Assembly (NCBI GenBank): GCA_036386835.1
Contig: DASVUX010000011.1
Location: 192,291-256,290, forward strand
Source of the DNA: Bacteroidia bacterium
GTDB lineage: Bacteria; Bacteroidota; Bacteroidia; 2-12-FULL-35-15
Reading direction: 5' to 3'
Length of the DNA: 64,000 nt
Under the pieces are notes generated by a model. That model ran no database searches. It was given only the letters and a program-made list of their open reading frames with translations, and was not told where the DNA came from. The translations under genes and the position numbers were made by a program. Position 1 is the first letter of the stretch. Each line of letters opens with the position of its first letter. Shown piece after piece: positions 12,233 to 60,685 of this stretch.

Positions 12233-12344
12233 GAGGTATTTACTATTTTAGTTTAGAGGATGCTAAAGGTAAAAAATTGAATATATAATTCCAAGAGAAA
12301 AGCATCACAAAAACACCTCAAATTAAGGTTTCGGAACCGTTCAC

Positions 12345-12376
12345 ATAAAAAAAGCCTGTCCGGACGAACAGGCTTT
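12345..12376 (-). terminator. rho-independent terminator after the 2338-aa gene
   Basis: Inverted repeat aagcctgt / acaggctt (12352-12359 and 12368-12375) with an 8-nt loop. A plus-strand A-run precedes it, giving a U-tract on the minus strand. It lies immediately after the stop at 12396. Confidence 0.55.
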
Positions 12377-12395
12377 TAACAAAGAACAAGAATGA

Positions 12396-15300
12396 CTAAT
12401 ATACAATCATCTTCTTAACCGTTTCCGATTTTGAATTTGTAATGCCAATAGTATAGATGCCCTGCCCGAATTCAGTCACAGTTAATTGACGGATATAGCT
12501 TCCTGTGAAATCATTCAGTGTTTCAGAATACACCTTTTGGCCCAGTGCGTTCATGATCTCGATCCGGTAGTCGGCCTTTTCGTTACTAAAGAACGACAAG
12601 GAAAACTCCCCATTGTTCGGATTCGGATAAACCATAAATTCATTGGCTGCGGCTCCTTCACTTATTCCTACAGTTGTAACAGATGTAACTGCAGAGGATA
12701 CTGATGAGCATCCATTAACTGTTACTATTACAGTGTAGTTGCCATTTGCGAGGAATGTATAATTCTGACCTGTTGCTCCAGCTATTGGCGATCCATTCAG
12801 ATACCACTGATTACCGGAAGCTGCACTTGATGAAAGCACAGAACCGGATTGAGTTATTGCCGGGGCCGGCGGAACAGGATTAACCATCATGCCAATACTG
12901 TTGCTTGCCGCTGCTGAAGGGGTCGCACATAATAATGAAGATGTGAGTGTGCACGTAACTACATCACCGTTATTTAAAGCCGAAGAAGAAAAAGCCGGGG
13001 AATTGCTTCCTGCTGCAACACTGTTTACCTGCCATTGATAGACCGGGGAGCCACCTTCATTATTAACCGAAGAGCTGAATGTAACAGGATCGCCAGCACA
13101 AATAATATTTGAAGGTGATACGGAAATCATAACCGAAGGTGTAACGTTGGTTCCGACACTCATAGTAATCCCTGCAGAAGTTGCAGCCGCGGGGCTTGCA
13201 CACACAGCACCAGAAGTCATCGTGCAGGAAACCACATCACCGTCAGCCAATGTTGAAGATGAATAAACCGCAGCATTAGACCCTGCATTCACACCATTCA
13301 CCTGCCATTGATAGGCTGGCGAATTTCCCCCGTTATTCCCGGAAGCCTGGAATGTAATTGGCTGTCCGTTGCACATAGGGTTCGATCCTGAAGCAATTGA
13401 CACTGTCAGCGAAGGGATTACTACAGGATTAACAGTCATTGTAATGGCATTCGATGCTATTGTTGCAGGCGATGCACATGTGGCATTGCTCGTCAGTACA
13501 CAACTAATTATATCGGCATCAGTCAAAGCGGAATTGCTATAAGAAATTCCTGTTCCGGCATTCGACCCATTCAGCAGCCATTGATAAGCAGGACTTGAGC
13601 CGCCATTGGTTGCAACCGCTGTAAATGATGCTGCCGACCCTGCACACATCGGGTTGCTGCCTGAAGTTTGGGTAATCGTAATTGCAGGAGTTACGCCCGG
13701 GTTTACGGTTACCGTTGTAGTTCCTGCGGGGCTGGTACACCCGGAAGCGGTGACAGTCACACTATAGGTCCCTGCCATAGCAGCTGTAGCAGGTGAACGG
13801 GAAGGGTTCTGCAATGTCGAACTGAAAGATCCCGGACCACTCCATGAATAAGATGCGCCCGCAACAGTTGATGCGGTGAAGTTAATTGACGTGCCTGCAC
13901 ATACAGGGGCATTACTTCCTGCTACAGGTGCGGAAGGAACAGGATTCACCGTCATGGTTATTCCTGTGGAAGTTACACTTGCAGGACTTGCGCACCCTGA
14001 GGAGGAAGTCATGGTACATGTAACAACCTGTCCGTTTGCAAGCTGTGATGAAGAATAAGTAGTACTGTTTGATCCTACATTTGAACCGTTCACCTGCCAT
14101 TGATATACGGGAGATGTTCCTCCATTTGCCGGAGTTGCAGTAAACACAACATTTGATCCCGCACATAACGGATTCGTTCCTCCTGTCTGCACCACAGAAA
14201 CGCCAGGTGTAACAGTTGAATTGACTGCAACTACTGTTGTACCTGCCAGGCTGGTACATCCGCTTACCGTAACTGTTACACTGTAGGTTCCTGCCATGGC
14301 TGCTGTAGCTGAAGGCCTGGTCGGGTTCTGAAGTGCGGATGTGAACGAAGGTCCGGTCCAGCTATAGCCAGCACCGACCACTGCGGGTGTGCTGAGATTG
14401 ATTGAAGTGCCTGTACACACAGGGGTGTTGCTTGACGCAGTAGGCGTTGAAGGGATAGGCGTAACACCAATGCTCACAGTAGAAATATTACTCTGGCATC
14501 CGTTTACAGTAACCGAGAGTGAATAAGTTCCCGCCATAGCTGAAGTAGCGTTGGTTAATGCCGGAGGATTCCTCACGGATGCGGAATAACTGTTCGGGCC
14601 TGTCCATGAATATACCGCTCCTGCAATACTATTGGATGTCAGCGTAATAGTACCGCCTGCGCAAACCGCAGCCGGGGTTGTGCTTCCATTTATATTCGCT
14701 ATTGGTGCAGTTGGGGTAGCATTCACAGTTACCGTAGCGGTGCCCGCTGGACTGGAACATCCGTTAGTCGCGACCGTGACACTGTATGTTCCGCTCATTG
14801 CTACAGTTGCCCCCGCTCTTGCCGGATTCTGTGCCGTACTTGTAAATGATCCCGGACCCGTCCATGAATATGCCGCTCCTGTTACAGCAGGTGTGCTAAG
14901 GTTGATAGTAGCGCCTGAACATAAAGGAGAATTGGTTGTAACTACCGGGGTTGCAGGGGTTTGGTTTACTGTCGCTACAGTAGTACCGGCAGCGCTAGTG
15001 CATCCTCCAACAGTTATTGTTAAGCTGTATGTTCCAGACATTGCAGCTGTAGCAGAGGTCAATGAAGGATTCTGCAAAGCGGATGTGAACGATAAAGGAC
15101 CGGACCAGCTATAAGTTGCACCGGTAATGGTGCCTGTGGTTAAATTTAATGCGGACCCTGAACAAACAGGTCCGTTATTGGCCGCAGCCGGTGCGGCTGG
15201 TGTTGGATTTACAATAACATTCGCTGTACCAGCTGCACTTGTACATCCTCCAGAAGTTACAGTTACACTATATGTGCCCGCCATGGCTGCTGTTGCAGCA

Positions 15301-45782: not shown

Positions 45783-48700
45783 CTATATGCGGTTTTTTAC
45801 TTGATTCTGTTTAAATATGATCGTGTACTTTGTGCCGTTGGATGAATCCATCTCAATACTGCCGTTCAACTGGTCGGTCAAAGTTACAACTAATTGTAAT
45901 CCGAGCGACTGTGTATTCCTGTAATCTATTTCCTTCGGAAGGCCTATGCCGTTATCAGCGACTTCCAGCACAAGGTTCTCCTTATCCAGGACCATTTTTA
46001 CCGAGATCTCCCCTTCGCCTTTTTTATCGACAAATGCATATTTTAATGCGTTGGAAACGATCTCGTTAATGATCAATCCACATGGAATAGCCAGGTCTAA
46101 ATTAAGAAAAACATTTTGAATGTCAAGACTTAATTTTATTTCCTTGTCAAAATTAGAATACGATTGTATCAGGTTATGAGAAAGATTAACCACATATTCG
46201 GAAAAGTTAATGCTGGAAAAATCTTTTGTCTGGTATAAACTTTCATGGATAAATGCCATTGACTTTATCCGATTCTGGCTTTCCTTCAGTATATTAAGTG
46301 TTCCCTGGTCCTTCACGTATGATGACTGCAGGTTCAGGATGCTTGATATTACCTGGAGATTATTCTTCACGCGGTGATGTACTTCTTTGAGCAACACCTC
46401 TTTTTCCTGGAGCGACTGTTTAATCTTTTCCTCGGCAAGCTTTTTCTCCGTTATATCATTTCCTATCCCGGATATTTCCCTCACATTGCCGTTCTCGTCA
46501 AAGATCGGGTTAAGATAGATCTCGCGCCAAACAACGTCTCCGTTACGGTCTACCAGCTTTGTTTCAAAATGCTGGCGTTCGCCCCGTAATGCAGCTTTGT
46601 CTTTCTGAACCCAGAAATTATTATAATCGTTTGATGTGAGCATTTCGTCAGCAGCCATGTTTAAACCGATAAAAACTTCGGTGTTATAATGCTTCTTAAA
46701 AAAATGTGCGAAGTTCTTATTATAGGAGGTGAGGCACAAATTGGTATCAAGGGTCCAGATCACATGTGAACTGCTTTCGAAAACTGCATTCAGTTTTGCT
46801 GACTGCCCTCGTAATTGTTCCTCCGCCTGCTTGAGCTCCGAGATATCACGCGAAACACCCATTGCCCCAACAATTTCCCCGACTTCATTCCGGAGTACCG
46901 AAGCGGATAAAAATGCAGTGAAGCGCTCACCGTTTTTCCGGATATTACTTACTTCTCCTGAATAAACCCCTGTTTTAAACAGCTTCTCATCAGTTATCTG
47001 GACTCGTTGCTTTGGGTCTTCATAAAGCATGCTTACGTGCTTTCCGATCACTTCCTCGGGACTGTAGCCAAACGTGCGCTGCGCTGCAGCATTGAATTCA
47101 GTAATAAACCCATCCTTATCAGAGGCGCAGATCATATCAAGTGAGCTTTCTATCAGCAGCCGTGTGTATTTCTGGGATTCCTGCAGCTGTAGCTGGATGA
47201 CCTTCCGTTTGGTGATCTCCTGTTCAAGCAATTCGTTTGTTTCCTCAGCGATCTGCGCGCGCATCTGTTCCTTTACGAGCTGCTTCTGTGTGGATATGTC
47301 ATGTACTACTGTTAAAACTGCATCTTTACCATTAAATTTAATGAGGATCGGCTTGGTCTCCACTTCTCTTATTTCACCTGATAGGGTTTTAATTTTTATT
47401 TCGGTGAACTCCTGGGGTTCGCCTGCAATGACTTTACTAATCCGGCTCAGGATAGTTGGCTTGTATTCCGGGAGAAGGAAATCGAAGAGAGAATAGTTCA
47501 GGGCCTCTTCAGGATCCCTTATTCCTACAAGCCTTGTAGCGCTTGGATTTGCAAATACAACTTTACCGTTAATGTGTATAAAGACGCCATCTGGTGAATA
47601 ATCGACAAGGCTCTTGTAGTTCTCCCTGCTGCGTTTCAGTTCCACCTCGAATTTCTGACGGTCCGTGGCATCTATAATAAACCCTTCCAGGAACAAAAGA
47701 TCGCCATCTTCTGAAAAAACCCCCTCCCCTTTTTCCCATACCCATTTCACTTCATCATTAGCTGTCTTTATCTTATACGAAAGCACGTAAGGTTTTTTGC
47801 GCTCAAGCGCTGATGCAACCTTTGCTCTTACCTTCTGCCTGTCTTCCGGCATAATCAGGTCATTGTATGCGACCTTTTTATTGTGGATCATATCAACCGG
47901 CCTGTAACCTGTTAATTCCGCACAGCCCTTGCTTACAAACAACATTGTCCAGGAACCGTCAAAGTTACACCGGTAGGCCATACCCGGCAGGTTATTCATT
48001 AATGTAGAAAGTGTCCGTTCGCTTTCACGAAGGCTGGTCTCATATTGTTTGCGTTCTGTAATATTATAAATAACAGTTGCTTTGATCGTCTTTCCGAAAT
48101 AGGGGATGTTCTGTGCTTTTGTTTCCACGGTCATTATAGCTCCATCCTTCCTTACGGTTTGCACTTCAAATGGCTCGGACTTAGGAAGTCGTGAGAATTT
48201 TTTGGCCATGCTTCTCTGTTCGGGAATGACGAAATCATCAACAACATCTTTCCCAAGTATTTCATTCACATGATTATAGCCGTACATTTTCAGGAACTGA
48301 TCATTCGCATCAATGATGCGGCCGTGTTCAGAAAAAACGATCCCTTCAAAGGTTGCATTCGAAAGTATCTTAAATCTTTCTTCGCTTTCCTTCTGCTGGG
48401 TGATGTCCCTGGAAATCCCTTCAATTGCAATAATTTTTCCTTCACTGTTCCTTACTGGCGTGTTTACAGTTTCTGTCCAGACAGCTGTACCATCCTTGCG
48501 GATCCAGCGAAGTTTAATGTTAGGTTCACGTACATTATTGATCGGCCGGTTCTCAAAAATAAGCTTCTCCGAATCCCCGAGAATGTGCCGGTCCTCGGGA
48601 TGAATGATCTTAAAGCCAAGGTTGGGGTCCTTATAAAAATCTTCCGGAGTATAACCGGTAAGATTATAAATAGAAGGGCTCACATATCCATATCGTGGTG

Positions 48701-50045
48701 CGGGGCGGAGTTCAAAACGATAAACTACATCAAGCGCATTCTCTGCAAGCATCCTGAATTTTTCTTCACTTTCCTTCAGCTGGCGCTCTGCATTTATCTG
48801 AGCGCTGACATCTCTCACCAGCCCGAAATTCCCAATGTGATTACCTGATGCGTCTATCTGGGGCGTGATCCTTTCTTCGATCCAGATGTATTCTTTTTTT
48901 GAACGGTGATAAAACCTGTAAACAAACTCCTGCGGCTTCCTTGTTCTCCTTAGGTCCTTCGCAACTTTTCTTATTTTATCTATATCATCCGGGTGGCATA
49001 ATGCTACAAGTGTATCCCCTGATTTCTCATATTCTTTAGGTGTTACATCAAGGATTTGTTTTATCTGCCTGCTGAGATACTTTACTCTTCTTTTCCCTTC
49101 CGGCAAAAACTCAATGTAATAAACCAGTTCCAAAATATTATTCAGGACCTGTGAAAGATCCTCGCGGCTTTGTTTTAAAATATCCTCATTCTTCTTCCGC
49201 TCTGTAACATCCCTTGTGATTCCTTCTATTGCGACCATCCTGCCTTTACTGTCGTGCACAGGTATGTTCACGCTTTCGATCCAAACCACTTTCTTATCTT
49301 TCCGGATACTTCTGAAAAGCACCGGGGGCAATACAGCTCCGCGCTTTGCCTTTGCGATCTTTGCATTGTTGGCATCAGCAATTACCCGGTCCTCCGGGTG
49401 AATTATCCTGGTGCCCAGCATCGGGTCCTTATAATATTCGCCCTGAGAATATCCCGTGATCTTTTTAACTGAGGGACTGATAAATTCACATGCAAAGTCC
49501 GGGTACACCCGGTAGCGGTAAATAATATCTGCTGCATTCTGTGCAAGCATCCTGAATTTTTCCTCGTTCTGTGAAAGCTTCTCCTTCGCCTCTACTTCTT
49601 TGGTTATATTGGTTGCTTCAACAATTACTGCAGCGATTTTTTTATTTTCATACAGCGGTGTTGCTTTACAGGAAAAAACAGCGGCCTTTCCGGAAACAGA
49701 GTACGCTCTGGTCATGTATTCCCTGGACTTCCCGGTTTTAAAAACGGAGGTGATGGCGTTGCGCACAAGAGCGCGCGATTCCGGGAACACAAGATCAAAA
49801 GCCTTTTTACCAAGCACATCACTTTTTTTCCGGCCCTTCCCGGTTTTATTGACATCAAGAATGTTTAGCTTATGATCAACAACAGCAACAGTATTACCGG
49901 AGTGCTTAAAAACGCTTAGCCAGGGAACTCCTGCAACCTTTTTTTTGGAAACGGTGGCCTTATCCCTGTTTTTTGAATCAAGCCTTCGCTGAAGCTTTTT
50001 GAGTTCGGCAATAAGCTCTGATTTGGTTTTAGAGGAGAGAGGCAT
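45783..50045 (-). CDS. cytoplasmic multi-PAS/PAC sensor histidine kinase with HisKA_2-type phospho-acceptor and HATPase domains (1420 aa)
   Basis: No TM segments. At least seven PAS/PAC-like modules (repeated ..GxxxWxxxVNTPVxxxxGKIIAIEGISRDITExK.. blocks). H-box EVHHRVKNNLQVISSILNLQ is characteristic of HisKA_2. The C-terminal ATP-binding G-boxes include DNGIGLP. The start is 3 bp after the MORN gene stop, and the stop is 3 bp before the LytTR regulator start. Confidence 0.85.
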   Translation of the reverse strand: MPLSSKTKSELIAELKKLQRRLDSKNRDKATVSKKKVAGVPWLSVFKHSGNTVAVVDHKLNILDVNKTGKGRKKSDVLGKKAFDLVFPESRALVRNAITSVFKTGKSREYMTRAYSVSGKAAVFSCKATPLYENKKIAAVIVEATNITKEVEAKEKLSQNEEKFRMLAQNAADIIYRYRVYPDFACEFISPSVKKITGYSQGEYYKDPMLGTRIIHPEDRVIADANNAKIAKAKRGAVLPPVLFRSIRKDKKVVWIESVNIPVHDSKGRMVAIEGITRDVTERKKNEDILKQSREDLSQVLNNILELVYYIEFLPEGKRRVKYLSRQIKQILDVTPKEYEKSGDTLVALCHPDDIDKIRKVAKDLRRTRKPQEFVYRFYHRSKKEYIWIEERITPQIDASGNHIGNFGLVRDVSAQINAERQLKESEEKFRMLAENALDVVYRFELRPAPRYGYVSPSIYNLTGYTPEDFYKDPNLGFKIIHPEDRHILGDSEKLIFENRPINNVREPNIKLRWIRKDGTAVWTETVNTPVRNSEGKIIAIEGISRDITQQKESEERFKILSNATFEGIVFSEHGRIIDANDQFLKMYGYNHVNEILGKDVVDDFVIPEQRSMAKKFSRLPKSEPFEVQTVRKDGAIMTVETKAQNIPYFGKTIKATVIYNITERKQYETSLRESERTLSTLMNNLPGMAYRCNFDGSWTMLFVSKGCAELTGYRPVDMIHNKKVAYNDLIMPEDRQKVRAKVASALERKKPYVLSYKIKTANDEVKWVWEKGEGVFSEDGDLLFLEGFIIDATDRQKFEVELKRSRENYKSLVDYSPDGVFIHINGKVVFANPSATRLVGIRDPEEALNYSLFDFLLPEYKPTILSRISKVIAGEPQEFTEIKIKTLSGEIREVETKPILIKFNGKDAVLTVVHDISTQKQLVKEQMRAQIAEETNELLEQEITKRKVIQLQLQESQKYTRLLIESSLDMICASDKDGFITEFNAAAQRTFGYSPEEVIGKHVSMLYEDPKQRVQITDEKLFKTGVYSGEVSNIRKNGERFTAFLSASVLRNEVGEIVGAMGVSRDISELKQAEEQLRGQSAKLNAVFESSSHVIWTLDTNLCLTSYNKNFAHFFKKHYNTEVFIGLNMAADEMLTSNDYNNFWVQKDKAALRGERQHFETKLVDRNGDVVWREIYLNPIFDENGNVREISGIGNDITEKKLAEEKIKQSLQEKEVLLKEVHHRVKNNLQVISSILNLQSSYVKDQGTLNILKESQNRIKSMAFIHESLYQTKDFSSINFSEYVVNLSHNLIQSYSNFDKEIKLSLDIQNVFLNLDLAIPCGLIINEIVSNALKYAFVDKKGEGEISVKMVLDKENLVLEVADNGIGLPKEIDYRNTQSLGLQLVVTLTDQLNGSIEMDSSNGTKYTIIFKQNQVKNRI

Positions 50046-50048
50046 ATT

Positions 50049-51602
50049 TTATTTGATGCTTGGCTCTGAGGTAGGCGTTTCGGGTGTTACTTTAACCCCG
50101 TCAAAACGGATTTCAATATCATTCTTAAAAAGTATTGTCAGGAAAAGGAAACCCGACTCATCATAAAACTTCCAATCCCCTTCTTTTAATCCGCCAACAT
50201 ACTTTCCTGTCTGCCTTTCTTTCCCGTTCGGATAGTAGAATGTCTGTAACCCGTCAGGAATGCCGTCAATGAACTTTCCTGAAAAGCGTAATTTCCCGGT
50301 TGAGGTGTAATAATGTTTCCACTCTCCATCGCGTCTGTCGGCCTTATAGCTGCCTTCTTCCCTGTAGTCAGGAGCTTCCAGCACCCAGGGCCCTTCTTTT
50401 AAACCATCAATGTATTCGCCCTTCGTGATTATTTTTGCACTGTCAGGACCAGCATCGCTGTATTCGGTCATCATGCCATCCTGGAGATCATTCCGGTAAT
50501 TCTCTTCCCTTAAGAGATTGCCGCTTTCATAGTACCACTTCCAGATTCCCTGGGCCTTGCCCTTTTTATCATATTTCCCTTTCTGCTCCACTTTACCGTT
50601 TGCATGATAGAAGACCCATTCGCCAATCCTTTTTCCGTTGAGATATTCGCCTTTTGATTTAACCTGACCGTTCGGGTGATACTCCACCCATGGCCCCTGC
50701 TGCCGGCCCGCTGTATCAAGGATTCCTTCACCGGTTAATACTCCTTCGGAATACATTTTAGCCCCAATCACTTTTCCTTCGGGAGAGAACTCCCGCTGTA
50801 TGCCTTCTGCCACACCATCCTTATACGTTGCAGTGAATTTAACCGATCCATTATCGTGATAGGTTGTTTTAACATCCAGCTTCGCCAGTTCGGGAGCATT
50901 CGTCTGAAGAACCCCGTTAATGTATTTGGTGGTATTTACAAGACTCCCTTTGGGTGAGTATTCTTTGAGATAACCGTTCATCTTGTCATCGGAGTAAGTC
51001 ACTTCCGTTTTGATCACACCTGTAGGATAGAAGGTTTTCCACATCCCCTGTTTCAGCCCGTTTGCATCCTTCCGGTTGATCTTTTCCTCTTTCTGCACAA
51101 AGCCCATTTTGTATTGGGTGATCGTTATAATGGTGCTGTCGGGCGCATACTCATATCCGGCCCCTTCCTCTTTACCCGCTACAAACGGAATCGTTTGCTT
51201 TACCTTTCCATCCTTATAATAATTCACCGTATTACCCTGCTTTACATCATTCTCGTAATTTTCTGCAGTGACTACAACCCCTTCTTTTGTATCATAGATT
51301 TTCTTAGGGCCATTCTTCTTTCCTTCCGTGTAATTGAATTCAAAAGCAAGTTTGCCCTGCTCATTGTAGAAACGCCAGGTACTATCGAGCATGAAATTCT
51401 TCCGGTTGCCTTCCGATTTAAGCTTCCCGGTTTGAGAATACGTTTTCCAATAGCCGTCCGGCTTACCGTCTTTCATCGGGCCTTCGCTGGAAACTACCCC
51501 ATTATCATAATAGAATTTATTATAGCCGTTGGGATTGGTTGGTACCTGTGCGTATAAACACACAGGTAAAAACAATAAGAGCAGTCTGAATATGCTTTTC
51601 AT
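50049..51602 (-). CDS. secreted MORN-repeat protein (YwqK-like repeat family)
   Basis: Signal peptide MKSIFRLLLLFLPVCLYAQ. More than 15 degenerate ~23-aa repeats of the form G.W..YY.NG.L...G.Y..G...G.W. Confidence 0.7.
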   Translation of the reverse strand: MKSIFRLLLLFLPVCLYAQVPTNPNGYNKFYYDNGVVSSEGPMKDGKPDGYWKTYSQTGKLKSEGNRKNFMLDSTWRFYNEQGKLAFEFNYTEGKKNGPKKIYDTKEGVVVTAENYENDVKQGNTVNYYKDGKVKQTIPFVAGKEEGAGYEYAPDSTIITITQYKMGFVQKEEKINRKDANGLKQGMWKTFYPTGVIKTEVTYSDDKMNGYLKEYSPKGSLVNTTKYINGVLQTNAPELAKLDVKTTYHDNGSVKFTATYKDGVAEGIQREFSPEGKVIGAKMYSEGVLTGEGILDTAGRQQGPWVEYHPNGQVKSKGEYLNGKRIGEWVFYHANGKVEQKGKYDKKGKAQGIWKWYYESGNLLREENYRNDLQDGMMTEYSDAGPDSAKIITKGEYIDGLKEGPWVLEAPDYREEGSYKADRRDGEWKHYYTSTGKLRFSGKFIDGIPDGLQTFYYPNGKERQTGKYVGGLKEGDWKFYDESGFLFLTILFKNDIEIRFDGVKVTPETPTSEPSIK

Positions 51603-51758
51603 AATTTATCTTCTATACAAATTTAATCAAAAATGCAGCGGTTTCAAAACAGAAGAAGCTCCTCATCTGATTTTTCCTGCTTTTTTAACGTCTTTTGCAA
51701 TGTCATTAATTTCAGGTCTTTCAGAATAATGTTATACTTTTATAAAAAACAACGTACC

Positions 51759-52865
51759 ATGTTACGATTAAAATTTTTAGTGCCGGGGTTATTATGTTCG
51801 GGGCTATGTGCAGCCCAGATCACCATTACCGCTGCTGACATTGCGAATGCCGGGGATACATTACGTGTTAGCACCCTGTCCACAACCCAGGGAATTAACC
51901 ATACTTTAACCGGGCCGGGATATACATGGGATTTTTCAAGCCTTCAACCTGATATGCAGCGATTTGAAAAATTTGACGCACCATCCGCCTTTCCCTCTCC
52001 GTACAACCTTCTTTTTAATCCCGCGAATACTTCTTATGGTAAAGTGAATTATCAGAACATAGGTTCTGTTTTTCCGGGATTCAGCATTGATGCGGATTAC
52101 GATTTTTTCAAGGAAACAGCTGTCATGCTGCGCCAGAACGGTATTGGCTATGTGCTGAACGGCATACCGGTGCCAATGAATTACTCCATGCCTGATACCA
52201 TTTATGAATTTCCTGTTGAGTTCGGGGATACAACGAGCGGAGATTATAAATTTTCAACCCCTTCGTTTGCAGCCATTCCGTTCTATTATGGTGAAGTAGG
52301 CCACCGTGAAAGTGTTGTGGATGGATGGGGAGATCTCATTACTCCTTTCGGCACATTCCCTTCTTTGAGGGTCCGTGCTGTGATCACCGCTACAGATTCT
52401 CTTTACATCGATACTCTTGGTTTCGGTGTTTCGATCCCACGGCCTCCAAGGTTTGAATACAAATGGCTTGCAGCAGGATCAAAGGTGCCGCTGTTACAGG
52501 TGGATGCAACAGATGCGGGAGGGTCTGAAATTGTAACAGGTGTGTTTTACCGTGACAGCGTGCGGAATGTGCCACAGGTAGGCATCCAGGAAATTTACAC
52601 GATGAGCGGTTTTTCTGTTTCCCCGAACCCCTGCTCTGAGACAGCTGTTATAAATTATAGTTTAAACGGTTACGCTAAAGTAAAGATCAGCATCTCTAAT
52701 ACCCTCGGCCAGGTTGTTTCCGTTATCTCGGATGAAAAGCTGCAAGCAGGGAAACAAGCTCTGACAATAGATGTTAAGTCGCTGGGACTTGAAAGTGGGA
52801 TTTATTTTGTGACGCTGGAAAGCGGGAATAAAAGGGACGTAAAGAGGCTGGTGGTTGGGAAGTAA
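51759..52865 (+). CDS. secreted protein with type-A T9SS C-terminal sorting domain; N-terminal domain of unknown function
   Basis: The start is refined to MLRLKFLVPGLLCSGLCAAQ (ATG at 51759). The longer ORF from 51633 has no signal peptide. The C-terminal ~85 aa SGFSVSPNPCSETAVINYSLNGYAKVKISISNTLGQVVSVISDEKLQAGKQALTIDVKSLGLESGIYFVTLESGNKRDVKRLVVGK fits Por_Secre_tail. Confidence 0.65.
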   Translation: MLRLKFLVPGLLCSGLCAAQITITAADIANAGDTLRVSTLSTTQGINHTLTGPGYTWDFSSLQPDMQRFEKFDAPSAFPSPYNLLFNPANTSYGKVNYQNIGSVFPGFSIDADYDFFKETAVMLRQNGIGYVLNGIPVPMNYSMPDTIYEFPVEFGDTTSGDYKFSTPSFAAIPFYYGEVGHRESVVDGWGDLITPFGTFPSLRVRAVITATDSLYIDTLGFGVSIPRPPRFEYKWLAAGSKVPLLQVDATDAGGSEIVTGVFYRDSVRNVPQVGIQEIYTMSGFSVSPNPCSETAVINYSLNGYAKVKISISNTLGQVVSVISDEKLQAGKQALTIDVKSLGLESGIYFVTLESGNKRDVKRLVVGK

Positions 52866-53190
52866 CGTGTCATTTCGAACGGAACAACGTGAAAGAGAAA
52901 TCTCATTATAAAAGATTTCTCCTTATAGTCGAAATGACAAATAAGCAACGGGTTAACCTCTGCTCATATTATCACCTTGGAGAGATTCCGTCTCGCAGCA
53001 CGGAATGACGATCATACTGCATCCTGTCTGTCATTTCGAACGGAACAACGTGAAGAGAGAAATCTCATTATAAAAGATTTCTCCTTATAGTCGAAATGAC
53101 AAATAAGCAACCGGTTTACTCTGCTCATATTATCACCTTGGAGAGATTCTGCCTGCAATACAGAATGTGCGGTCTGCGCAAACAGCTTAT
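52866..53190. repeat. tandem duplication of a ~161-bp structured intergenic element (two copies, each with nested hairpins)
   Basis: Copy 1 is about 52869-53029 and copy 2 about 53030-53190; the first ~135 nt are near-identical. Each copy holds an outer 10-bp stem gtcatttcga...tcgaaatgac that encloses an inner 9-bp hairpin gagaaatct-cattataaa-agatttctc. Each also has a 3-prime hairpin whose sequence differs between copies but keeps pairing (attccgt..acggaat versus attctg..cagaat). Confidence 0.6.
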
Positions 53191-55172
53191 TTACTGCCTT
53201 CTGAAAATGTGGAGATCGCAATGATCTGGATCTTTCTTTCAAGTGCGGCTGCAGGGCTGTAAACAGAATTCTTGGTATCATAATAATCATCACTCACATT
53301 CGGCCTGGCTTTTAATTCCCCGATCTGCTCATCGATAAAAGTTATACTGCCCTCATTAGAATTTTGATTATCCAAATACTTTACGAACACTCCATTCTGG
53401 TATTCCATGAAATAATTGCGAAGGCTCGAAATCCTTCTTTTTGCAAGATTAACGTTGTAATCGGTTGATGCCAGCGGGCTGCAGAACCCCTTCATTGTTA
53501 TGGTCACTTTTTCCTTATCCTTTAATACTTTCAGCATCAGCTGCGCGAATTTATCAAGGTCCTGCATACCTGCATCCACGCTGTCGTCAAAGAGATTATC
53601 AATATCGCTGTATGCCCTTTCAATATTCTCCGCGGCAGCACCTTTAGAATATTCCTTTTTATACTGCTCCCGCATAGCGGAATAATCTTCATACGTCTTC
53701 TTATAGTTCTTTGTTGTTGTTGTAGCAAGCGTTTTCTTGTCAGGCTCATCATTGTGAAAATACAATGTAAGTGGCACAAGCAGCTTCATCTGCGTTACAA
53801 AGATCTTTGTACTGTCAACAACCACAGGCGGTTCATCTATCCGCGGGATCTTAAATGTGTAAATGTCATTGCAGCAGCTTTCTTTTTCCTCAAAATAGGA
53901 CCCGATTCGGTTAGACGATAAAAATGCTGCTGTTTTCTGAGAATTTATACTGAAATAAATATCGTTATAACTGGTATTGATGGGTGAACCAAGGTTCTTT
54001 ACATCAGAAAATTCTTTGTCCTTAAATTCGCTTCTGAAAATATCAAAAGCCCCCAGTCCTTTATGCCATGTGGAGGAGAAAAATAGCTCCTGGCAGGGTT
54101 TGCAATAAAACGGTGTGATCTCATCTTCAATAGAGTTTATCTTCTTCCCTGCATTTACCGCCTTATCAAAAGTCCCGTCCTTATTTATTCTGCTGTACCA
54201 TATATCCATCTGGCCTTCACCACCGGGCCGGTTGGAAGAAAAAAACAAGACTTCCTGTTCACCTAGAAAGCCAACCGCAGGCTGCGTGTTATTTGTTCCC
54301 TTTTTATTGATCTCTTCGGGAAGCAGCTGCAATGGGGACCAGTGGCCATCTTTAAAATCTGAAGAATAGATCTCACAATTAAACGACTGTCCGTCTTTCT
54401 GAACGCAGCGGGTTATATAAACTTTTGTAAAATCATTATTGAATGCAGTATTCGCGTTGTGGATCCCGTTCTTGTTAAACAGTGAATCCAGCTCCTCTGC
54501 TTTCTGCCATCTGATGCTGTCCTTCTTTGAAGTATAGATCTTATTATAACTTACATTATTCTTCTTGTCGTGGTCTTTTTTATCCCGTAATGAAGAGAAA
54601 TATAAAACACTGTCCACCTGGATGGGCGCATATTCAGATACTTTGCTGTTCACTGCACTGTCAAGATGGATCACATTTACCGACTTGTCAGCCCCGGCCA
54701 TCAGCAGCTGTGCATAGTCACAGGCAGCAACTTCCTGGATCGCCTTTTTAACGTAATAGCTGTCCTTTTTCTTTTTATTTTTCTTAGCATATTTATCGAA
54801 CATCTTTTTGGCATCCTTGTATTTCCCTTTATTCTTCCTGATCATTGCAAGCCAGAAGGAGCATTCAGGATACAGCTTGCCCTGGGAATCTTTTTTAAAA
54901 ACTTTTGAATACCAGTGGTCGGCAATATCGTAATCATAGTTCAACCGGCTGGCTTCAGCATATTTATACTGGATCGCCATATCGCTGGAGTCCTGGTTAA
55001 TTGCCTGGTTATAATAAATCGCTGCCGAGAAAAAATCATTGTCCGCAAAAGCTTTATCGCCATCTTCAATTAGCTGTTTCAGCTTCTGGGCTTGAAGGGG
55101 AGATGATAGATAGGAGATATTAGATATTAGAACGGCAATAAGAACAAAGAGAACTCTTGAGTATTGCCTCAT
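53187..55172 (-). CDS. OmpA-family protein with N-terminal TPR-like repeats and a TolB/WD40-like beta-propeller (PorE-like architecture)
   Basis: The start is refined to MRQYSRVLFVLIAVLISNISYLSSPLQAQ (ATG at 55172), which avoids the overlap with porP. A TPR-like N-terminus, TolB-like repeats (FSSNRPGGEGQMDIWYS), and a C-terminal OmpA_C motif TDYNVNLAKRRISSLRNYF. Confidence 0.7.
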   Translation of the reverse strand: MRQYSRVLFVLIAVLISNISYLSSPLQAQKLKQLIEDGDKAFADNDFFSAAIYYNQAINQDSSDMAIQYKYAEASRLNYDYDIADHWYSKVFKKDSQGKLYPECSFWLAMIRKNKGKYKDAKKMFDKYAKKNKKKKDSYYVKKAIQEVAACDYAQLLMAGADKSVNVIHLDSAVNSKVSEYAPIQVDSVLYFSSLRDKKDHDKKNNVSYNKIYTSKKDSIRWQKAEELDSLFNKNGIHNANTAFNNDFTKVYITRCVQKDGQSFNCEIYSSDFKDGHWSPLQLLPEEINKKGTNNTQPAVGFLGEQEVLFFSSNRPGGEGQMDIWYSRINKDGTFDKAVNAGKKINSIEDEITPFYCKPCQELFFSSTWHKGLGAFDIFRSEFKDKEFSDVKNLGSPINTSYNDIYFSINSQKTAAFLSSNRIGSYFEEKESCCNDIYTFKIPRIDEPPVVVDSTKIFVTQMKLLVPLTLYFHNDEPDKKTLATTTTKNYKKTYEDYSAMREQYKKEYSKGAAAENIERAYSDIDNLFDDSVDAGMQDLDKFAQLMLKVLKDKEKVTITMKGFCSPLASTDYNVNLAKRRISSLRNYFMEYQNGVFVKYLDNQNSNEGSITFIDEQIGELKARPNVSDDYYDTKNSVYSPAAALERKIQIIAISTFSEGSK

Positions 55173-55336
55173 AAATCCATCGCACATACGTGGACTCTGT
55201 TCAGCATAACCATTATTTACTGCAGCAGGTAATGAAGAGATTGCTTCGTTAGTGCCTCGCTCCTTCGGTCGCCATAGGCTTGCTGCAGACGATGCGCAAT
55301 GACGTTCCGTATCAATGATCCTGGTCTCCGGCATAC

Positions 55337-56353
55337 TTACATATAAATTGGACAAACGCGTTTTTTGGCAACGAAAGGAACGATCTTCTTAAAAATATAA
55401 ATGACGGAGATCTCGAATCCACCTCTGCGGTTTGTTGCTTCGATAAGCTTTGAAGTATTCACATCATAGCTGATCCCGACATTAAAATTCCGGTAATCAA
55501 CGTTGGCTGCTAAAATGAAAGCATCCTTAACACGGTAGAAAGCACCAAGAGACACGGCTGTTTCCAATCCATTCACTCCTTTCAGGTGATATTTACCAAA
55601 CAACCCCAAAAGTGTTTCCTGGAATTTGCCCTGGCGTTGGTACATAAAGCTCGGCAAGATATCAAGTTTCGCAGCCACCGGGATCTGTCCGAGGCCGCTT
55701 ACTGTTGTCTTTATATCCAGGCGGATATCATCATCGTTAAAGAAGGATTGCTTCGGCCTGTTAAGATGGAATGCGGACACACCGAAATTAACTTTGGTGC
55801 GGTTGGTTTTGCGCCAGTAATAAACGAAACCAGCTCCCATGTCAAAATATGTAATGCGTGTCCTGGAGAAGTTCTCACCGCTTGCGAGCGATGCGTTGTA
55901 CTGATCACCGTCATACTGGTTGTCGAATGTAAGGGCATTCACATTAAAACTTTTTGTGGTGATCCCCGGTTGGATAGCAACAGAGAGGAAGTGAGCTGAA
56001 TCTTTCGTAAGCTTTTTGATATATGATCCTGAAAGCAGGACCTGGGTTGTTCCGAAACGTGAATCACCTGATTTGTCATTGTTTATCTGCAGACCAACAC
56101 CGGGAACATCATTTTCAAGCCTGGTTTTTAAACGGGTATCGCCTGCAAGCGAAAAGGTTTTGTAAGGCACCGGGATTGCAGACCACTGGCTCCGGTAATT
56201 CCCGGCAAAGCGCCAGTCGCCATCAAACAAACCGGTTTGGGCAGGATTTAAATTCTGGGGAGAAGCGTTGAACTGGGAATAATGAATGTCCTGTGCATAG
56301 GAAGACCCTATACACAAAAACAGGAAAAATAATATGAGATTATTTTTATTCAT
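55337..56353 (-). CDS. PorP/SprF-family type IX secretion system outer-membrane protein
   Basis: Signal peptide, then the family-typical N-terminus QDIHYSQFNASPQNLNPAQTG. A ~300-aa predicted beta-barrel ending in an aromatic residue. It lies directly after a type-B CTD cargo gene (start codon abuts that gene's stop). Confidence 0.8.
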   Translation of the reverse strand: MNKNNLILFFLFLCIGSSYAQDIHYSQFNASPQNLNPAQTGLFDGDWRFAGNYRSQWSAIPVPYKTFSLAGDTRLKTRLENDVPGVGLQINNDKSGDSRFGTTQVLLSGSYIKKLTKDSAHFLSVAIQPGITTKSFNVNALTFDNQYDGDQYNASLASGENFSRTRITYFDMGAGFVYYWRKTNRTKVNFGVSAFHLNRPKQSFFNDDDIRLDIKTTVSGLGQIPVAAKLDILPSFMYQRQGKFQETLLGLFGKYHLKGVNGLETAVSLGAFYRVKDAFILAANVDYRNFNVGISYDVNTSKLIEATNRRGGFEISVIYIFKKIVPFVAKKRVCPIYM

Positions 56354-59300
56354 CTATCGTATCAATGTTGTATTTCCTTTTTTCCTAAGCTCATCCCCGT
56401 TATAGCATTTTCCTCTTAAATACCATGCAAACACTGCAGGGTCAGCCTTCATGCCGTTATAAAAACCATCCCATCCTTTTGTAATATCATTTGTTTCAAA
56501 CACCATTTGCCCCCAGCGGTTATAAACAGCAAAATACACTTCCGTTATATCATTGCTTCTTACATAAAGAATATCATTCTCACCATCCATGTTCGGAGTG
56601 AATGTATTCGGAACAAAAACATTATCGGCCTTGCACTGCATTGATACCACATAAATAGTTACGGATGCAGTCCTTGGGCAGCCTGTAGAATCAAGGATTG
56701 AAACGGTATATGTGGTTGTTTCAGTTGGAGAAACTTCCGGGTGAAAGCCATGTATATTGCTGACGCCCGTGACCGGAAACCATGTGACGGTAAGGTTCGT
56801 ATCCGTTATTGCATGGATTACAGTGGCGGTGCCTTCAGGAATTGTATCCGAATTTGCAGTTGCCGACAGCGGGTATATATTCGGATCGATCACATACACG
56901 GTTGTGGACTGTGTTTGCAGGCAAGTGTCACCCAGTGAATTTATCGTGCTGATAGTTGCGGTATAGGTTGTTGTAACAGCAGGATTTGCAACCGGGTTTG
57001 CGATTACAGAAGATGAAAGTGATGCAGAAGGAGACCAGCTGTAAGCAAATCCTCCTGTTGCCAGGAGCTGGGTCCCGTTCTTTTCTATACATATTGTGTC
57101 ATCCGGGCTGATGGTTGTGGTAGCACCGTTATAACTTACCTGGACGGTTGTGGTATCACTGCAGCCATTGATGGTACTTGTTACAAGCTCCACATCATAG
57201 CTTCCTGCTGCGGCAAAAAGATGTGTCGGGTTCTGAAGGGTGGATGTTCCCCCGTCATCAAAATCCCACTCCCACGATACAGGCGCTACGGCAGAAGAAT
57301 CGTAGAATGAAAACAGATCGGTGCAGGGCAATGCCGCAAAATCAAAGTCGGCATTTATCCCGGGAAATACGGTGATTGATAATGAAACGGTATCCCATGT
57401 CGAACAGCTTGCGGTATCTTTAGAATATAACTGAACGACATAATTCCCGGAAGGAGTGAATGTCTGTGAAGGATTAAAAACAGTCGAGGTTGTGTTTCCA
57501 TTTCCAAAATTCCAAAGATAAACGGACGAAGATGGATTTTCGTTTGTGAATTGTATTGTTAGAGGATCGCAGCCGCTGGTGACAGGGGATGAGAATTGTG
57601 TTGTATCTGCCTTTAAATACACGGTTGTGGTTAGTACCAGCGGACAGGTATCATTAGATGAATTAACCGTTTGGATGGTTACGGTATAAGTAGTTGCCGT
57701 ATCCGGACTTGCAACCGGGTTAGCGATATTCGGATTATTCAATGATCCCGCGGGACTCCAGCTATAAGCAAAACCACCGCCTGCATTCAGCTGTATCGAG
57801 GTTCCGGTACAGATCGTGTCAGCCGGGGTAACGGAAACCGGTGGCGGCCCGACAAGATTCACCGGGATGCTTATGGTGTCGGCACATCCATTAACTGTTT
57901 GTGTGATCAGCTGAACATTATACACCCCTGCTGAATCGTACAGATGTGAAGGATTTTGAATGGAAGCTGAATCACTATCGCCAAAATTCCATTCCCAGGA
58001 AACCGGTGCAGAAAATGAAGAATCATTAAAGTTTACCTGGTTGGTACATTGCAATGAGGCGTAATTAAAGCTGGCTGTGATTCCCGGGTAAACGGTTACA
58101 TACTGAAATGCGGTATCATATATATTGCAGCTGCCGGGCTTGTTCACGATCAGTTGTACCATGTAGGTACCTGCATCCGGAAATGTATGAACAGGGTTAA
58201 GAACACTTGATGTTGTATCACCTCCGCCAAAATCCCAGAGAAATGTCCCGCCTGTACCGCTTTGATTCTGGAACTCCACAGTGAGGGGGGCACATCCATC
58301 GATATGATCAACAGTGAAATTTGCCTGTGCCAAAGGAACCTGGAAGTCAAGCCTGAAAACCCCGTTATTACAATTGTTGTTTTGGGTGTTATGGTTTGGA
58401 TTTCCGGGCGTTCCCGGCCATGCGCCCGGTGTTACGGGAAAATCATCATAACCTCCGCAGCCTGCGCATACAGACTGATAAACAATTCCCTTTTTATCAA
58501 AACGGCTGGTGCCCCCATCCACATGCTCCCTGCTTTGTCCCCCACCGAAATATGAACCATATAATAAACTGGAAGCATTGGTAGAAAGAACCAGTAAATA
58601 AAAATTGAATCCATCAGTAGACGGTTGAATGGCATTGGGTGTAATCGGCATTCCGCCTGTTAAACTTCCTGTTAAAATATTTCCACCCCAGCCGGAAACG
58701 TAAATATTTTCGCAATAATCCACAAGAAATGCTGAAGGGGAAATAGTCGGGAATGGGGTTCCGTTGCCAAAAACCGTTGAAAATATAACTGTATTCAGTG
58801 AGTCATTTATTTTGGTGATGAACTGTCCGCTGCCGGGGTTGTTGTAGGTTCCCGGGGTCACCGGCATCGACCCCCTTGTTTGTCCCACCACATATACATC
58901 ACCATCCTTGTCAAGCTGTACAAAATATGTCTGGTCATATTGGGCTGTCCCCCAATAAGTAGAAGCGATCATTGCACTGCCGTCCCCTTTGATCCTTGTG
59001 ATGAACCCATCTGCCTGTCCCCCTGAATACGAGGGCCTGAGCACACCTGGAGTTGTGGAAAAATCAAGGCTCCGTGTTCCTCCCGCAACACATACATTGG
59101 AAGAGTCGTCTATGGCAATGGCATAACCGGCATCATTGTCTGATCCGCCAAGGAATGTGCTCCAGAGCAACTGGGACAGATCAGGATTCAGTTTCATGAC
59201 TACTGCGTCCTGCTTGCCGCCAAGTGTGTTATCAATGCTGTTCACCATTGGAAAATCGCTTGACCTGGTTGAGCTGTTAATATATACATTGCCATATTGA

Positions 59301-60685
59301 TCCACGTTGATCTCCCCGCGGTATTGATCCCCGTAATTGTATTGCAGGGAATCATATTGTGATTCATACACCGGCATGCTTTGGCCGGCAACAGGATCAA
59401 AGAAATTGTTTATGAACACACTGTCATTATTGTAATTTGTCCCGTCATTCAGGCTTCCCCCGATATATGTTGAACCAAGTAATGACGTTCCGGCTGAGTT
59501 GAACTTAGCGAGGTAGATATCTGTTCCTCCATAGAAGTATGTCCCGTTGTTATAGAAGTACATGGCTATCCCTCCGTTGAAGGTCGCATCATACGCGTTA
59601 GCACTAACGGGAAAATCCGTTGAGCCCGTTGCACCGTAAAGGAACAATTCATCCTGTGCATTTACTACAAGACTTGTAACCACCTCTGTTCCGGTAAAAC
59701 CTCCGAGATAAGTTGAATACTGAAGAAATGCACCGGAGGAATCATACTTTGTAATTACAACATCCGTTCTTCCGTAAATATATGTGCTGGAACCGTTCCA
59801 GCTTGGATCAAATGCACCTACTGTAGTTGGATATCCCACTCCATAAGCAATTCCCCCGGAGTAAAGGTTCCCATCCGAATCATAAGTGGCAGTCATACCA
59901 AAATTATCCGCAATAGAACCCGAAGATGCTGCAAAAACTAAAACAGGATCAATAATTAACTCTTTGGTTTTATCATATCCGCGGGGAAATTTAAAATGAA
60001 CGATGTTATCCTTCAGAACGAATTTACAAGGCACCTCAACTTCTTTCCCGTCTATTACCTGGTATGCATAAGGCTCCTGCTCCACCATCTCGTTAAGGCT
60101 TGTCTTTAACACAAGGGATCCGTTTTTCAGGCTGATGTTATCAAGGCCTTCGTATAATAAGCGGATCTCGTTGGGATCACCGTTCGGGGCGACAATAAAA
60201 TTATATTTAATGTTATTTTCTTTTCCCAGGACCTGCAGCCCGATTCCTTTATAGAGTTCTTGATAATTTACTTCCTTAAAATTCCTTACTGCGGATGACC
60301 ATTTTGATTTGTCATTGCCCATAAAGAAATTACAATAATCCGGTGTCGGGGCAGTGGATGAATGCGTGACTGCGGATGAAGAGTTAAGGAACGTCATCCG
60401 GAAAGCATGCGTGGCAATGTTTATTGAATTGCCTTTTCCTCCGACATGATTTTTTCTCAGGGTTTCCTTATCATAGAAATTATAGGTAAAGCAGTTTTTT
60501 TCCAGGAAGAGTGCACCGCCATCCAGATGTGCACGATATAACACATTCCTTTCCCACTGGTTTTTATTTTCTGTAAACTTTATTCCTGCCTGGGATTTTT
60601 TAGGCGTACGGATATCGCCTGCAAAAAGAATTGCCGGACTAAGGAAGAAAAACAGCAGAAGATATTTTTTTATGCTTGCTATCAA
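56354..60685 (-). CDS. large secreted SBBP-repeat beta-propeller / PKD-domain protein with type-B T9SS C-terminal domain (1443 aa)
   Basis: Signal peptide MIASIKKYLLLFFFLSPAILFAG. SBBP-like repeats (LGGSDNDAGYAIAIDDSSNVCVAGGTRSLDFSTTPG and similar). Several PKD modules (FLWDFGGGDTTSS, WEWNFGDSDSAS, YLWNFGNGNTTST, WEWDFDDGGTST). Type-B CTD VFVPNTFTPNMDGENDILYV...YNRWGQMVFETND..GWDGF. Confidence 0.8.
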   Translation of the reverse strand: MIASIKKYLLLFFFLSPAILFAGDIRTPKKSQAGIKFTENKNQWERNVLYRAHLDGGALFLEKNCFTYNFYDKETLRKNHVGGKGNSINIATHAFRMTFLNSSSAVTHSSTAPTPDYCNFFMGNDKSKWSSAVRNFKEVNYQELYKGIGLQVLGKENNIKYNFIVAPNGDPNEIRLLYEGLDNISLKNGSLVLKTSLNEMVEQEPYAYQVIDGKEVEVPCKFVLKDNIVHFKFPRGYDKTKELIIDPVLVFAASSGSIADNFGMTATYDSDGNLYSGGIAYGVGYPTTVGAFDPSWNGSSTYIYGRTDVVITKYDSSGAFLQYSTYLGGFTGTEVVTSLVVNAQDELFLYGATGSTDFPVSANAYDATFNGGIAMYFYNNGTYFYGGTDIYLAKFNSAGTSLLGSTYIGGSLNDGTNYNNDSVFINNFFDPVAGQSMPVYESQYDSLQYNYGDQYRGEINVDQYGNVYINSSTRSSDFPMVNSIDNTLGGKQDAVVMKLNPDLSQLLWSTFLGGSDNDAGYAIAIDDSSNVCVAGGTRSLDFSTTPGVLRPSYSGGQADGFITRIKGDGSAMIASTYWGTAQYDQTYFVQLDKDGDVYVVGQTRGSMPVTPGTYNNPGSGQFITKINDSLNTVIFSTVFGNGTPFPTISPSAFLVDYCENIYVSGWGGNILTGSLTGGMPITPNAIQPSTDGFNFYLLVLSTNASSLLYGSYFGGGQSREHVDGGTSRFDKKGIVYQSVCAGCGGYDDFPVTPGAWPGTPGNPNHNTQNNNCNNGVFRLDFQVPLAQANFTVDHIDGCAPLTVEFQNQSGTGGTFLWDFGGGDTTSSVLNPVHTFPDAGTYMVQLIVNKPGSCNIYDTAFQYVTVYPGITASFNYASLQCTNQVNFNDSSFSAPVSWEWNFGDSDSASIQNPSHLYDSAGVYNVQLITQTVNGCADTISIPVNLVGPPPVSVTPADTICTGTSIQLNAGGGFAYSWSPAGSLNNPNIANPVASPDTATTYTVTIQTVNSSNDTCPLVLTTTVYLKADTTQFSSPVTSGCDPLTIQFTNENPSSSVYLWNFGNGNTTSTVFNPSQTFTPSGNYVVQLYSKDTASCSTWDTVSLSITVFPGINADFDFAALPCTDLFSFYDSSAVAPVSWEWDFDDGGTSTLQNPTHLFAAAGSYDVELVTSTINGCSDTTTVQVSYNGATTTISPDDTICIEKNGTQLLATGGFAYSWSPSASLSSSVIANPVANPAVTTTYTATISTINSLGDTCLQTQSTTVYVIDPNIYPLSATANSDTIPEGTATVIHAITDTNLTVTWFPVTGVSNIHGFHPEVSPTETTTYTVSILDSTGCPRTASVTIYVVSMQCKADNVFVPNTFTPNMDGENDILYVRSNDITEVYFAVYNRWGQMVFETNDITKGWDGFYNGMKADPAVFAWYLRGKCYNGDELRKKGNTTLIR

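Follow-up and report, generated by a model that had tools for sequence, protein, structure and literature searches.

A probable cluster of TGTC/CGTC-tagged palindromic repeats related to Neisseria dRS3/NTS and SRM in a convergent gap of a Bacteroidia bacterium

The 64,000-nt stretch of DNA analysed here (contig DASVUX010000011.1 of a Bacteroidia bacterium, positions 192,291 to 256,290; hereafter the window) carries between two convergent genes a duplicated, hairpin-rich element of 325 bp at positions 52866-53190. An earlier interpretation made from the letters alone (the sequence-only reading) listed as candidates a pair of small-RNA genes, a structured 3' untranslated region (3' UTR) and a REP/MITE-like repeat family. 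In our assessment the element is very likely a small mosaic cluster of TGTC- and CGTC-tagged palindromic repeats, which would belong to the superfamily of the dRS3/NTS repeats of Neisseria and of the Ssn-related motifs (SRMs). What is new is this cluster, whereas its repeat class is already known, and the element is not a new RNA gene. The proposed placement in the superfamily rests on the frame of the repeats, the hairpin, the covariation of the stem and the association with a protein, and not on the search string that the authors of the SRM study used.

Arms and hairpins in the convergent gap

The gap of 321 nt between the convergent stop codons consists almost entirely of two adjacent copies of a 161/162-nt unit. 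A repeat search detected direct repeats between 52868-52893 and 53029-53054 (100% identity), 52894-52957 and 53056-53119 (97%), and 52958-52993 and 53119-53154 (94%), with a start-to-start spacing of 161/162 nt. In a pairwise alignment the two copies differ at only four columns up to ...GGAGAGATTC (~97% identity by our own count), the region of the second hairpin, ~22 nt that follow ...GGAGAGATTC, is ~73% identical (also our own count), and beyond that region the copies do not align further. The tandem duplication of ~161 bp reported by the sequence-only reading is therefore borne out by both methods. Tandem Repeats Finder, run on window positions 50000-56000, did not list the 2 x 161-nt array, although it is clear from the repeat search and the alignment; the program may overlook two-copy arrays in which the second copy diverges at its end. 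No further copies were found in the 64-kb window with four sub-sequences and up to 3 mismatches.

The duplication is not an assembly artefact. Logan contigs of three other sequencing runs break where 31-mers become common to both copies: the assemblies of SRR10954972 and SRR10955009 break at window position 52923 and that of SRR10954988 at 53120, which are just these points. The JGI metagenome contig Ga0334953_000015 is identical over the locus and may be the same record as the window.

Both copies contain the nested stems that had been described. The outer stem TGTCATTTCGA/TCGAAATGACA has 11 bp and is 100% complementary in both copies, and it encloses a 9-bp inner stem GAGAAATCT/AGATTTCTC with the loop CATTATAAA. 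The 3' portions of the copies differ and yet both pair, as ATTCCGT-CTCGCAGC-ACGGAAT in copy 1 and ATTCTG-CCTGCAATA-CAGAAT in copy 2, the two being separated by one double compensatory change (C-G to T-A) and the loss of one pair. The basic unit, however, is not the hairpin but the arm, composed of (C/T)GTCATT, a short imperfect palindrome and AATC, as in GTCATTTCGAACGAAGTGAGAAATC. Each 161-nt copy is made of three arms: an inverted pair a/b of the TCGA class, which forms a 72-nt hairpin with a 9-nt loop, and an arm c on the minus strand ~45 nt further. The second hairpin that had been proposed for the 3' portion does exist; it is not a free-standing structure, being the third arm on the opposite strand. 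The components are as follows.

52868-52902, + strand: arm a1, TGTCATTTCGA-ACGGAACAACGTGAAA-GAGAAATC, TGTC-tagged, TCGA class, left half of hairpin 1 (strict arm scan)
52868-52939: hairpin (doublet) 1, consisting of arm a1, loop CATTATAAA and inverted arm b1; outer stem 11 bp, inner stem 9 bp
52914-52939, - strand: arm b1, TGTCATTTCGA-CT-ATA-AG-GAGAAATC, canonical short arm (arm scan, family pattern)
52940-52983: spacer 1, AAATAAGCAACGGGTTAACCTCTGCTCATATTATCACCTTGGAGA, not found beside family hairpins elsewhere
52984-53010, - strand: arm c1, CGTCATTCCGTGCTGCGAGACGGAATC, CGTC-tagged, CC/GG class, ATTCCGT/ACGGAAT 7 bp (arm scan)
53029-53101: hairpin (doublet) 2, consisting of arm a2 (53029-53064, + strand), loop and arm b2 (53076-53101, - strand)
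53102-53144: spacer 2, a copy of spacer 1
53145-53170, - strand: arm c2, GCACATTCTGTATTGCAGGCAGAATC, CT/AG class, with a decayed tag (CACATT for GTCATT) (relaxed arm scan)

Five strict GTCATT...AATC arms and one decayed arm were found, all within 52868-53170 and none elsewhere in the 64-kb window. The tag reads TGTCATT in four of them (a1, b1, a2, b2), CGTCATT in c1 and GCACATT in c2, and all six arms show ATTyy...rrAAT-C. Compared with the canonical 25-nt arm GTCATTTCGAACGAAGTGAGAAATC, arm a1 has small internal insertions, and arm b1 consists of a 5-bp ATTTC/GAAAT stem, tandem GA/GA and then the CT/AG pair-step. The a/b doublet is a gene-less arm-loop-arm unit, comparable to a REPIN or MITE. 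As single-stranded DNA (ssDNA) the 76-nt hairpin folds with -16.2 kcal/mol (z = -4.8), and with DNA parameters arm c1 alone reaches -5.1 and arm c2 alone -3.1 kcal/mol; the full 325 nt folded as RNA have z = -4.5 and -5.4 on the two strands relative to shuffles.

The spacers are less easily placed. A BLAST comparison of spacer and tail with 120 family loci found no homologue except in the same organism. A 22-mer of the spacer had no match among metagenome contigs in a collection that lacks this organism (the JGI contig Ga0334953_000015 has the 22-mer). Three segments of one family locus, L018 (2436-2470, 3661-3710 and 4029-4080; L-numbers label the loci examined), represent a long arm type, in which ...CTGCTCAGGATAAAyTCC... 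is inserted between the outer box and the inner one. Window positions 52957-52990 (CTCTGCTCATATTATCACCTTGGAGA) are similar to this arm type, over a short stretch and in this one locus only. Spacer 1 could tentatively be a decayed left arm of the long type, resembling L018 3661-3710. Each hairpin also holds a sigma-70-like match on the minus strand (TCGACT-16 nt-TATAAT, 10/12 positions; 52905-52932 and 53067-53094), which is probably a by-product of the repeat and without meaning, as Bacteroidota promoters follow another consensus.

A repeat family across phyla and its GIY-YIG partner

The distribution of the hairpin was surveyed in genome contigs, with one genome per species and a pattern limited to the outer stem (GTCATTTCGAA N30-60 TCGAAATGAC; the inner boxes were not part of it). 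The pattern occurs at at least 120 loci compared with ~8 matches expected by chance (596 Gb x 2 strands x 31 spacings / 4^21, our own calculation). Among the matches listed, to which the following counts also refer, are Bacteroidota, Ignavibacteriota, Chloroflexota, Desulfobacterota, Patescibacteria, Spirochaetota, Nitrospirota and Gammaproteobacteria. Both inner boxes (GARAAATC...GATTTYTC) are present in 107 of 128 distinct matches, and the loop between them measures 2-31 nt and has no conserved sequence. The hairpins are intergenic in 128 of 151 cases, in co-directional (74), convergent (24) and divergent (17) gene contexts, with arms on both strands. The window hairpin belongs to a very large repeat family that extends across phyla, in agreement with the REP/MITE-like candidate of the sequence-only reading. 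A blastn search of plasmids with the hairpin gave no match, and a literature search with the element's sequence strings returned primers only.

Some family members form head-to-tail arrays with a period of 84-86 nt (L018, L074, L099), and others form composite arrays (L145, L197, L130, L205). In some arrays (these same four composite loci) two arm classes alternate on opposite strands at fixed spacing, for example TCGA(+)/CCGA(-) every ~196 nt around a GIY-YIG gene in L145 and CCGG(-)/CTGA(+) every ~37 nt in L205; such heterodimer arrays are reminiscent of BIMEs.

Selection on the stem was assessed by a class-covariation test on the arms at GIY-YIG loci, without a pairing filter. Which dinucleotide precedes AATC is predicted by the one that follows GTCATT, the two being complementary, with class counts of 67/98 for TC/GA, 50/78 for CC/GG, 73/97 for CT/AG and 9/25 for GC/GC and with off-diagonal counts of 0-3. 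Past the conserved tandem GA/GA, both of the next pairs are kept in 164 of 276 distinct arms versus ~6% by chance, and ten dinucleotide types are represented. In these terms the compensatory change between c1 and c2 is a switch from the CC/GG to the CT/AG class, and the earlier inference of a selected stem, drawn from the two copies, was right. The change itself, seen in two sequences, may have arisen in place or through exchange with another arm.

Among 144 open reading frames (ORFs) within 700 nt of the listed hairpins, GIY-YIG is the only notable recurrent Pfam family (2 ORFs). Both genes encode single-domain proteins of ~105 aa, and both adjoin the largest hairpin arrays, L018 and L074. 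Conversely, an arm is located within 300 nt in 58 of 80 metagenome loci that encode relatives of that GIY-YIG protein (L126-L205). There are 2.34 arms per kb in the first 250 nt around the GIY-YIG gene, compared with 0.05-0.18 per kb beyond 500 nt, and the enrichment beside these ~100-aa GIY-YIG genes is 15-20-fold. The nearest upstream arm prefers the + strand, that is, the strand of the gene, by 27:9, and the nearest downstream arm prefers the - strand by 29:10, so that the GIY-YIG gene sits between inverted arms. The closest relatives of the partner (80-90% identity, L126-L131) carry the TCGA class of the window; other GIY-YIG loci carry CTGA, CCGA, GCGA or CCCG classes. Searches of PDB and NCBIfam with the GIY-YIG partner yielded no solved relative and no specific family model.

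The association links these repeats to a described system. SsnA is a 94-aa single-domain GIY-YIG protein (cd10448) and a site-specific ssDNA nuclease; in ssDNA it binds the NTS hairpin and cleaves on the upstream side, and it has no activity on double-stranded DNA or RNA (Chenal et al., Nat Commun 2025, PMC11893778). The Neisseria NTS (CGTCATTCCCGCGMAVGCGGGAATCYRG, which contains dRS3) surrounds ssnA, and SRMs are found nearby in 71% of ssnA homologues; specific binding and upstream cleavage of the tagged strand have been shown only for homologues from Neisseria and Wolbachia (PMC11893778). Over 85 residues the L074 protein shares 47% identity with a 94-aa N. gonorrhoeae GIY-YIG ORF (E = 5e-28 pairwise). 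This gonococcal ORF (L212, 1489-1773) sits among 9 exact NTS consensus repeats within 3.2 kb and is the SsnA orthologue. Another relative, at L185 (62% identity), is flanked by TGTCATTCCCGCGCAAGCGGGAATCTAT, which fits the published SRM string. As an aside, NZ_CP119140.1 and NZ_CP119142.1 (L212) are 2.17-Mb N. gonorrhoeae chromosomes filed as plasmids in PLSDB.

The arms of the present family and the SRM/NTS repeats share the tag (C/T)GTCATT, the imperfect palindrome and the 3' AATC, as seen in NTS CGTCATTCCCGCGMAVGCGGGAATCYRG and window arm c1 CGTCATTCCGTGCTGCGAGACGGAATC. Both are intergenic and clustered and flank a ~95-105-aa GIY-YIG gene in inverted orientation, in our case at the level of the family and not in the window. 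They differ in that the stem is A/T-rich here (ATTTC/GAAAT) and G/C in NTS, in the conserved tandem GA/GA, variable second helix and longer loops of the present arms, and in the common form, which is here a tight arm-loop-arm doublet folding into one 60-80-nt hairpin. There is a second precedent in the CGTC/TGTC-tagged REPs of Proteobacteria, Bacteroidetes, Chlorobi, Spirochaetes and Thermotogae (Di Nocera, De Gregorio and Rocco, BMC Genomics 2013, PMC3733652). In these repeats the unpaired terminal tag is often TGTC, A-T pairs begin the stem, and most occur as inverted dimers foldable as one large stem-loop; dRS3 is their family CGTC-1, and neither a flanked tyrosine transposase nor a dedicated enzyme was found for them (PMC3733652). 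The tag and the ATT/AAT start of the stem are present in the window, and a and b form an inverted dimer. The four described families, however, combine stems of 8-9 bp and loops of 4-5 nt with a CCA-like tail, whereas the arms here have 5 bp, GA/GA and then at least 2 bp, with loops of 3-16 nt.

Flanking genes and history of the site

Both flanking genes are borders that lie outside the element, the type IX secretion system (T9SS) cargo gene on the left and the OmpA-like gene on the right:

51759-52865, + strand: T9SS cargo protein with a C-terminal sorting domain, 368 aa, the upstream flanking gene (Pfam Por_Secre_tail, E = 4.6e-12)
53187-55172, - strand: OmpA-like, TPR-containing protein, 661-aa form, in the PorP/SprF-CHU_C (T9SS) cluster, the downstream flanking gene

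The stop codon of the OmpA-like gene is at 53187-53189 on the - strand. The exact 368-aa cargo product is on record in other assemblies, while an exact-product look-up of the 410-aa ORF had no match, and the true start lies further downstream. The surrounding cluster of gliding/T9SS type spans window positions 45783-60685, with its gene order kept in all relatives examined. Its members are PorP/SprF, the OmpA-like protein, a MORN-repeat protein, a 1420-aa multi-PAS histidine kinase and two CHU_C-domain proteins, one of 1443 aa in the window and a second of ~1490 aa in related loci.

In the closest relative, L206 (91% identity of the OmpA-like protein), family units occupy the same site and flank a 274-aa gene (12262-13086) with a weak match to DUF6624. 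After the T9SS stop codon L206 has a diverged a/b hairpin with two uncompensated mismatches in the outer stem, and past the 274-aa gene arm a survives as a remnant and arm b is intact, followed by a spacer and by arm c (12055-12080), which is equal to c1 of the window but for one base. The same convergent gene pair lies 44, 29 and 13 nt apart in L207, L208 and L209 (OmpA-like identity 88%, 83% and 88%). At the same site L210 has an unrelated 186-aa lipoprotein-like gene (8055-8615) and L211 an unrelated 146-aa gene (8062-8502). No arms were detected across stretches of 14-22 kb in these five relatives, L207-L211.

Presence of the cluster in the window and L206, combined with empty or otherwise occupied sites in L207-L211, places the acquisition in the common ancestor of the first two lineages. 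Two units may have existed in that ancestor or may have arisen twice, and since L206 likewise has two related units, an old duplication is conceivable. Over their first ~125 nt the units of the window resemble each other far more than they do in the c arms, an indication of recent duplication or gene conversion of this part. For the 274-aa gene both an insertion between the units and a loss from that position are conceivable. As an observation in its own right, the content of the gap between the T9SS-cargo and OmpA-like genes varies within this Bacteroidia clade, from a gene to nothing to a repeat cluster. In Neisseria, units of 50-150 bp bounded by dRS3-type hairpins, as in the neisserial intergenic mosaic elements (NIMEs) and 'minimal mobile elements', stand in tandem between genes. 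The present locus is similar in its tandem units between genes and in a site that in relatives holds different small genes or none, and different in phylum and arm class, in its tiny cluster of two units and in having no known link to transformation.

Weighing the interpretations and their meaning

By the logic of the family, the arms would act as sites at the level of DNA, a single-stranded arm folding into a small stem-loop. A ~100-aa Ssn-family GIY-YIG nuclease would bind the arm and nick only the tagged strand, a few nucleotides 5' of the tag. Full elements would then carry the nuclease gene between inverted arms, and doublets and arrays would be derivatives without the gene that spread or persist between genes. 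That an Ssn protein binds and cuts these particular arms is what we infer by analogy with the published enzymes.

Several observations weigh against this interpretation. There is no GIY-YIG gene in the 64-kb window, and copy number in the clade appears low: the 64 kb contain a single cluster, and the stretches of 14-22 kb from the five relatives contain none. SRM/NTS-like repeats are characterised by tens to hundreds of copies per genome. With nearest-neighbour DNA parameters arms a and b alone reach only -1 to -2 kcal/mol, with z about 0, and because they barely fold alone, a hairpin formed by a single arm is argued for by the covariation and not by energy. The published SRM string, HGTCWYN(0-2)YYVSBRHN(0-5)WNVSBRGN(0-2)RNCYNB, matched 0 window arms on either strand, though it matched NTS in a control. 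It fits only 2 of the 80 GIY-YIG loci, compared with 58 of 80 for the simple GTCATT..stem..AATC frame, and CTGA (73 arms), TCGA (66), CCGA (25) and GCGA (8) seem to be arm classes outside it. Mobility, moreover, is deduced from presence and absence among relatives, and the function of the partner is borrowed from Ssn enzymes of other subfamilies. No nuclease gene in 64 kb, the low copy number, the one decayed tag and the decaying copies of L206 together suggest that the cluster is probably a relic in tolerant 3' intergenic DNA; insertion between two convergent stop codons is a harmless position.

The candidates of the sequence-only reading that concern RNA, a small-RNA gene pair or a 3'-UTR element, to which one may add a terminator or stabiliser without a U-tract, would require that the structure be selected as RNA. 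The element directly follows two stop codons, so that transcripts from either side probably include it in their 3' UTR, it folds as RNA far better than shuffles on either strand (the z-scores above), and REP-type repeats affect 3'-end stability in other bacteria (PMC3733652), so that a side effect on the 3' ends of the neighbouring mRNAs is possible by analogy. However, Rfam 15 had no match in the whole window at the gathering score, and at E <= 10 the locus gave merely chance-level matches of microRNA type (E = 6-8). The earlier exclusion of a canonical intrinsic terminator holds: no T-run follows the stems, and a terminator scan matched not at the hairpins but only at 53420-53437, within the OmpA-like gene. 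The family occurs in all gene contexts, including the 17 divergent ones among the matches listed, with arms on both strands; sequence boxes are conserved across phyla around a variable loop, the arms concentrate beside an Ssn-family nuclease gene, RNA is not bound by the partner enzymes published so far (PMC11893778), and the copies in L206 are losing their stems. We therefore regard selection as RNA as improbable, and the RNA candidates give way to the repeat family. A hammerhead-type ribozyme was also dropped, its core not being found and Rfam giving no match, as were an integron attC site, which would have GTTRRRY cores, and a CRISPR, the repeats here being inverted and not direct.

The tagged repeats must also be compared with other mobile repeats. 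REP/REPIN-RAYT systems and BIMEs were reportedly treated by Nunvar in 2010, Bertels and Rainey in 2011 and Ton-Hoang in 2012. The window element could be a classical REP/REPIN moved by RAYT, an IS200/IS605-type tyrosine transposase, or a MITE of a DDE transposon, and its build would suit this: two inverted short palindromes give one long hairpin, the clusters are BIME-like, and the element is present or absent among relatives. By family analogy the logic is also the same, with a short palindrome recognised as ssDNA, inverted doublets that form hairpins, gene-less copies scattered in intergenic DNA and repeats that flank the gene of the enzyme. The tag and the enzyme are different, GTAG with an HUH tyrosine transposase in those systems versus TGTC/CGTC with GIY-YIG here; no window arm has GTAG. 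CGTC repeats were found to flank no tyrosine transposase in the survey of Di Nocera et al. (PMC3733652), no transposase family is among the 25 families listed for ORFs near hairpins (a list that mostly leaves out families with a single ORF), and the arms have the 15-20-fold GIY-YIG association. This makes an origin through RAYT or a DDE transposon very improbable. Still less credit can be given to a neutral local duplication of unique DNA whose inverted repeats are there by chance and have neither family nor function. Such an event would fit the two copies in the window and the ~45-nt spacer found nowhere else, but it is refuted for the hairpins, whose boxes occur at at least 120 loci versus ~8 by chance and whose arm frame recurs around Ssn-type genes, and it is possible for the spacer only.

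The tagged DNA repeats lead us to a more far-reaching speculation, which we put forward as tentative and on balance rather doubtful. TCGA-class doublets could be non-autonomous mobile elements that are moved in trans by Ssn-type nucleases and have spread across phyla, and the gap between the T9SS cargo and OmpA-like genes could be a hot spot of cassette exchange bounded by such units. If this were true, the doublets would constitute a REPIN/RAYT-like system built on a different nuclease fold, most members of which were missed by the published SRM definition, and the hot spot would explain why relatives have a 274-aa, a 186-aa or a 146-aa gene or nothing at the site.

At the level of the locus the result is mainly corrective, as an apparently novel pair of structured RNAs becomes a cluster of a known class of DNA repeats, and annotation of the site should call neither small-RNA genes nor the spurious small ORFs that the repeats generate. 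At the level of the family the additions are modest: the arm classes located beside Ssn-type nucleases in Bacteroidota, Chloroflexota, Ignavibacteriota and others (TCGA, CTGA, CCGA, GCGA) escape the published SRM string, the arms often form tight inverted doublets and tandem arrays, and their classes covary cleanly. More candidate pairs of Ssn and target thereby become available, of interest as tools for ssDNA, and the analogy with REPIN-RAYT systems gains in strength.

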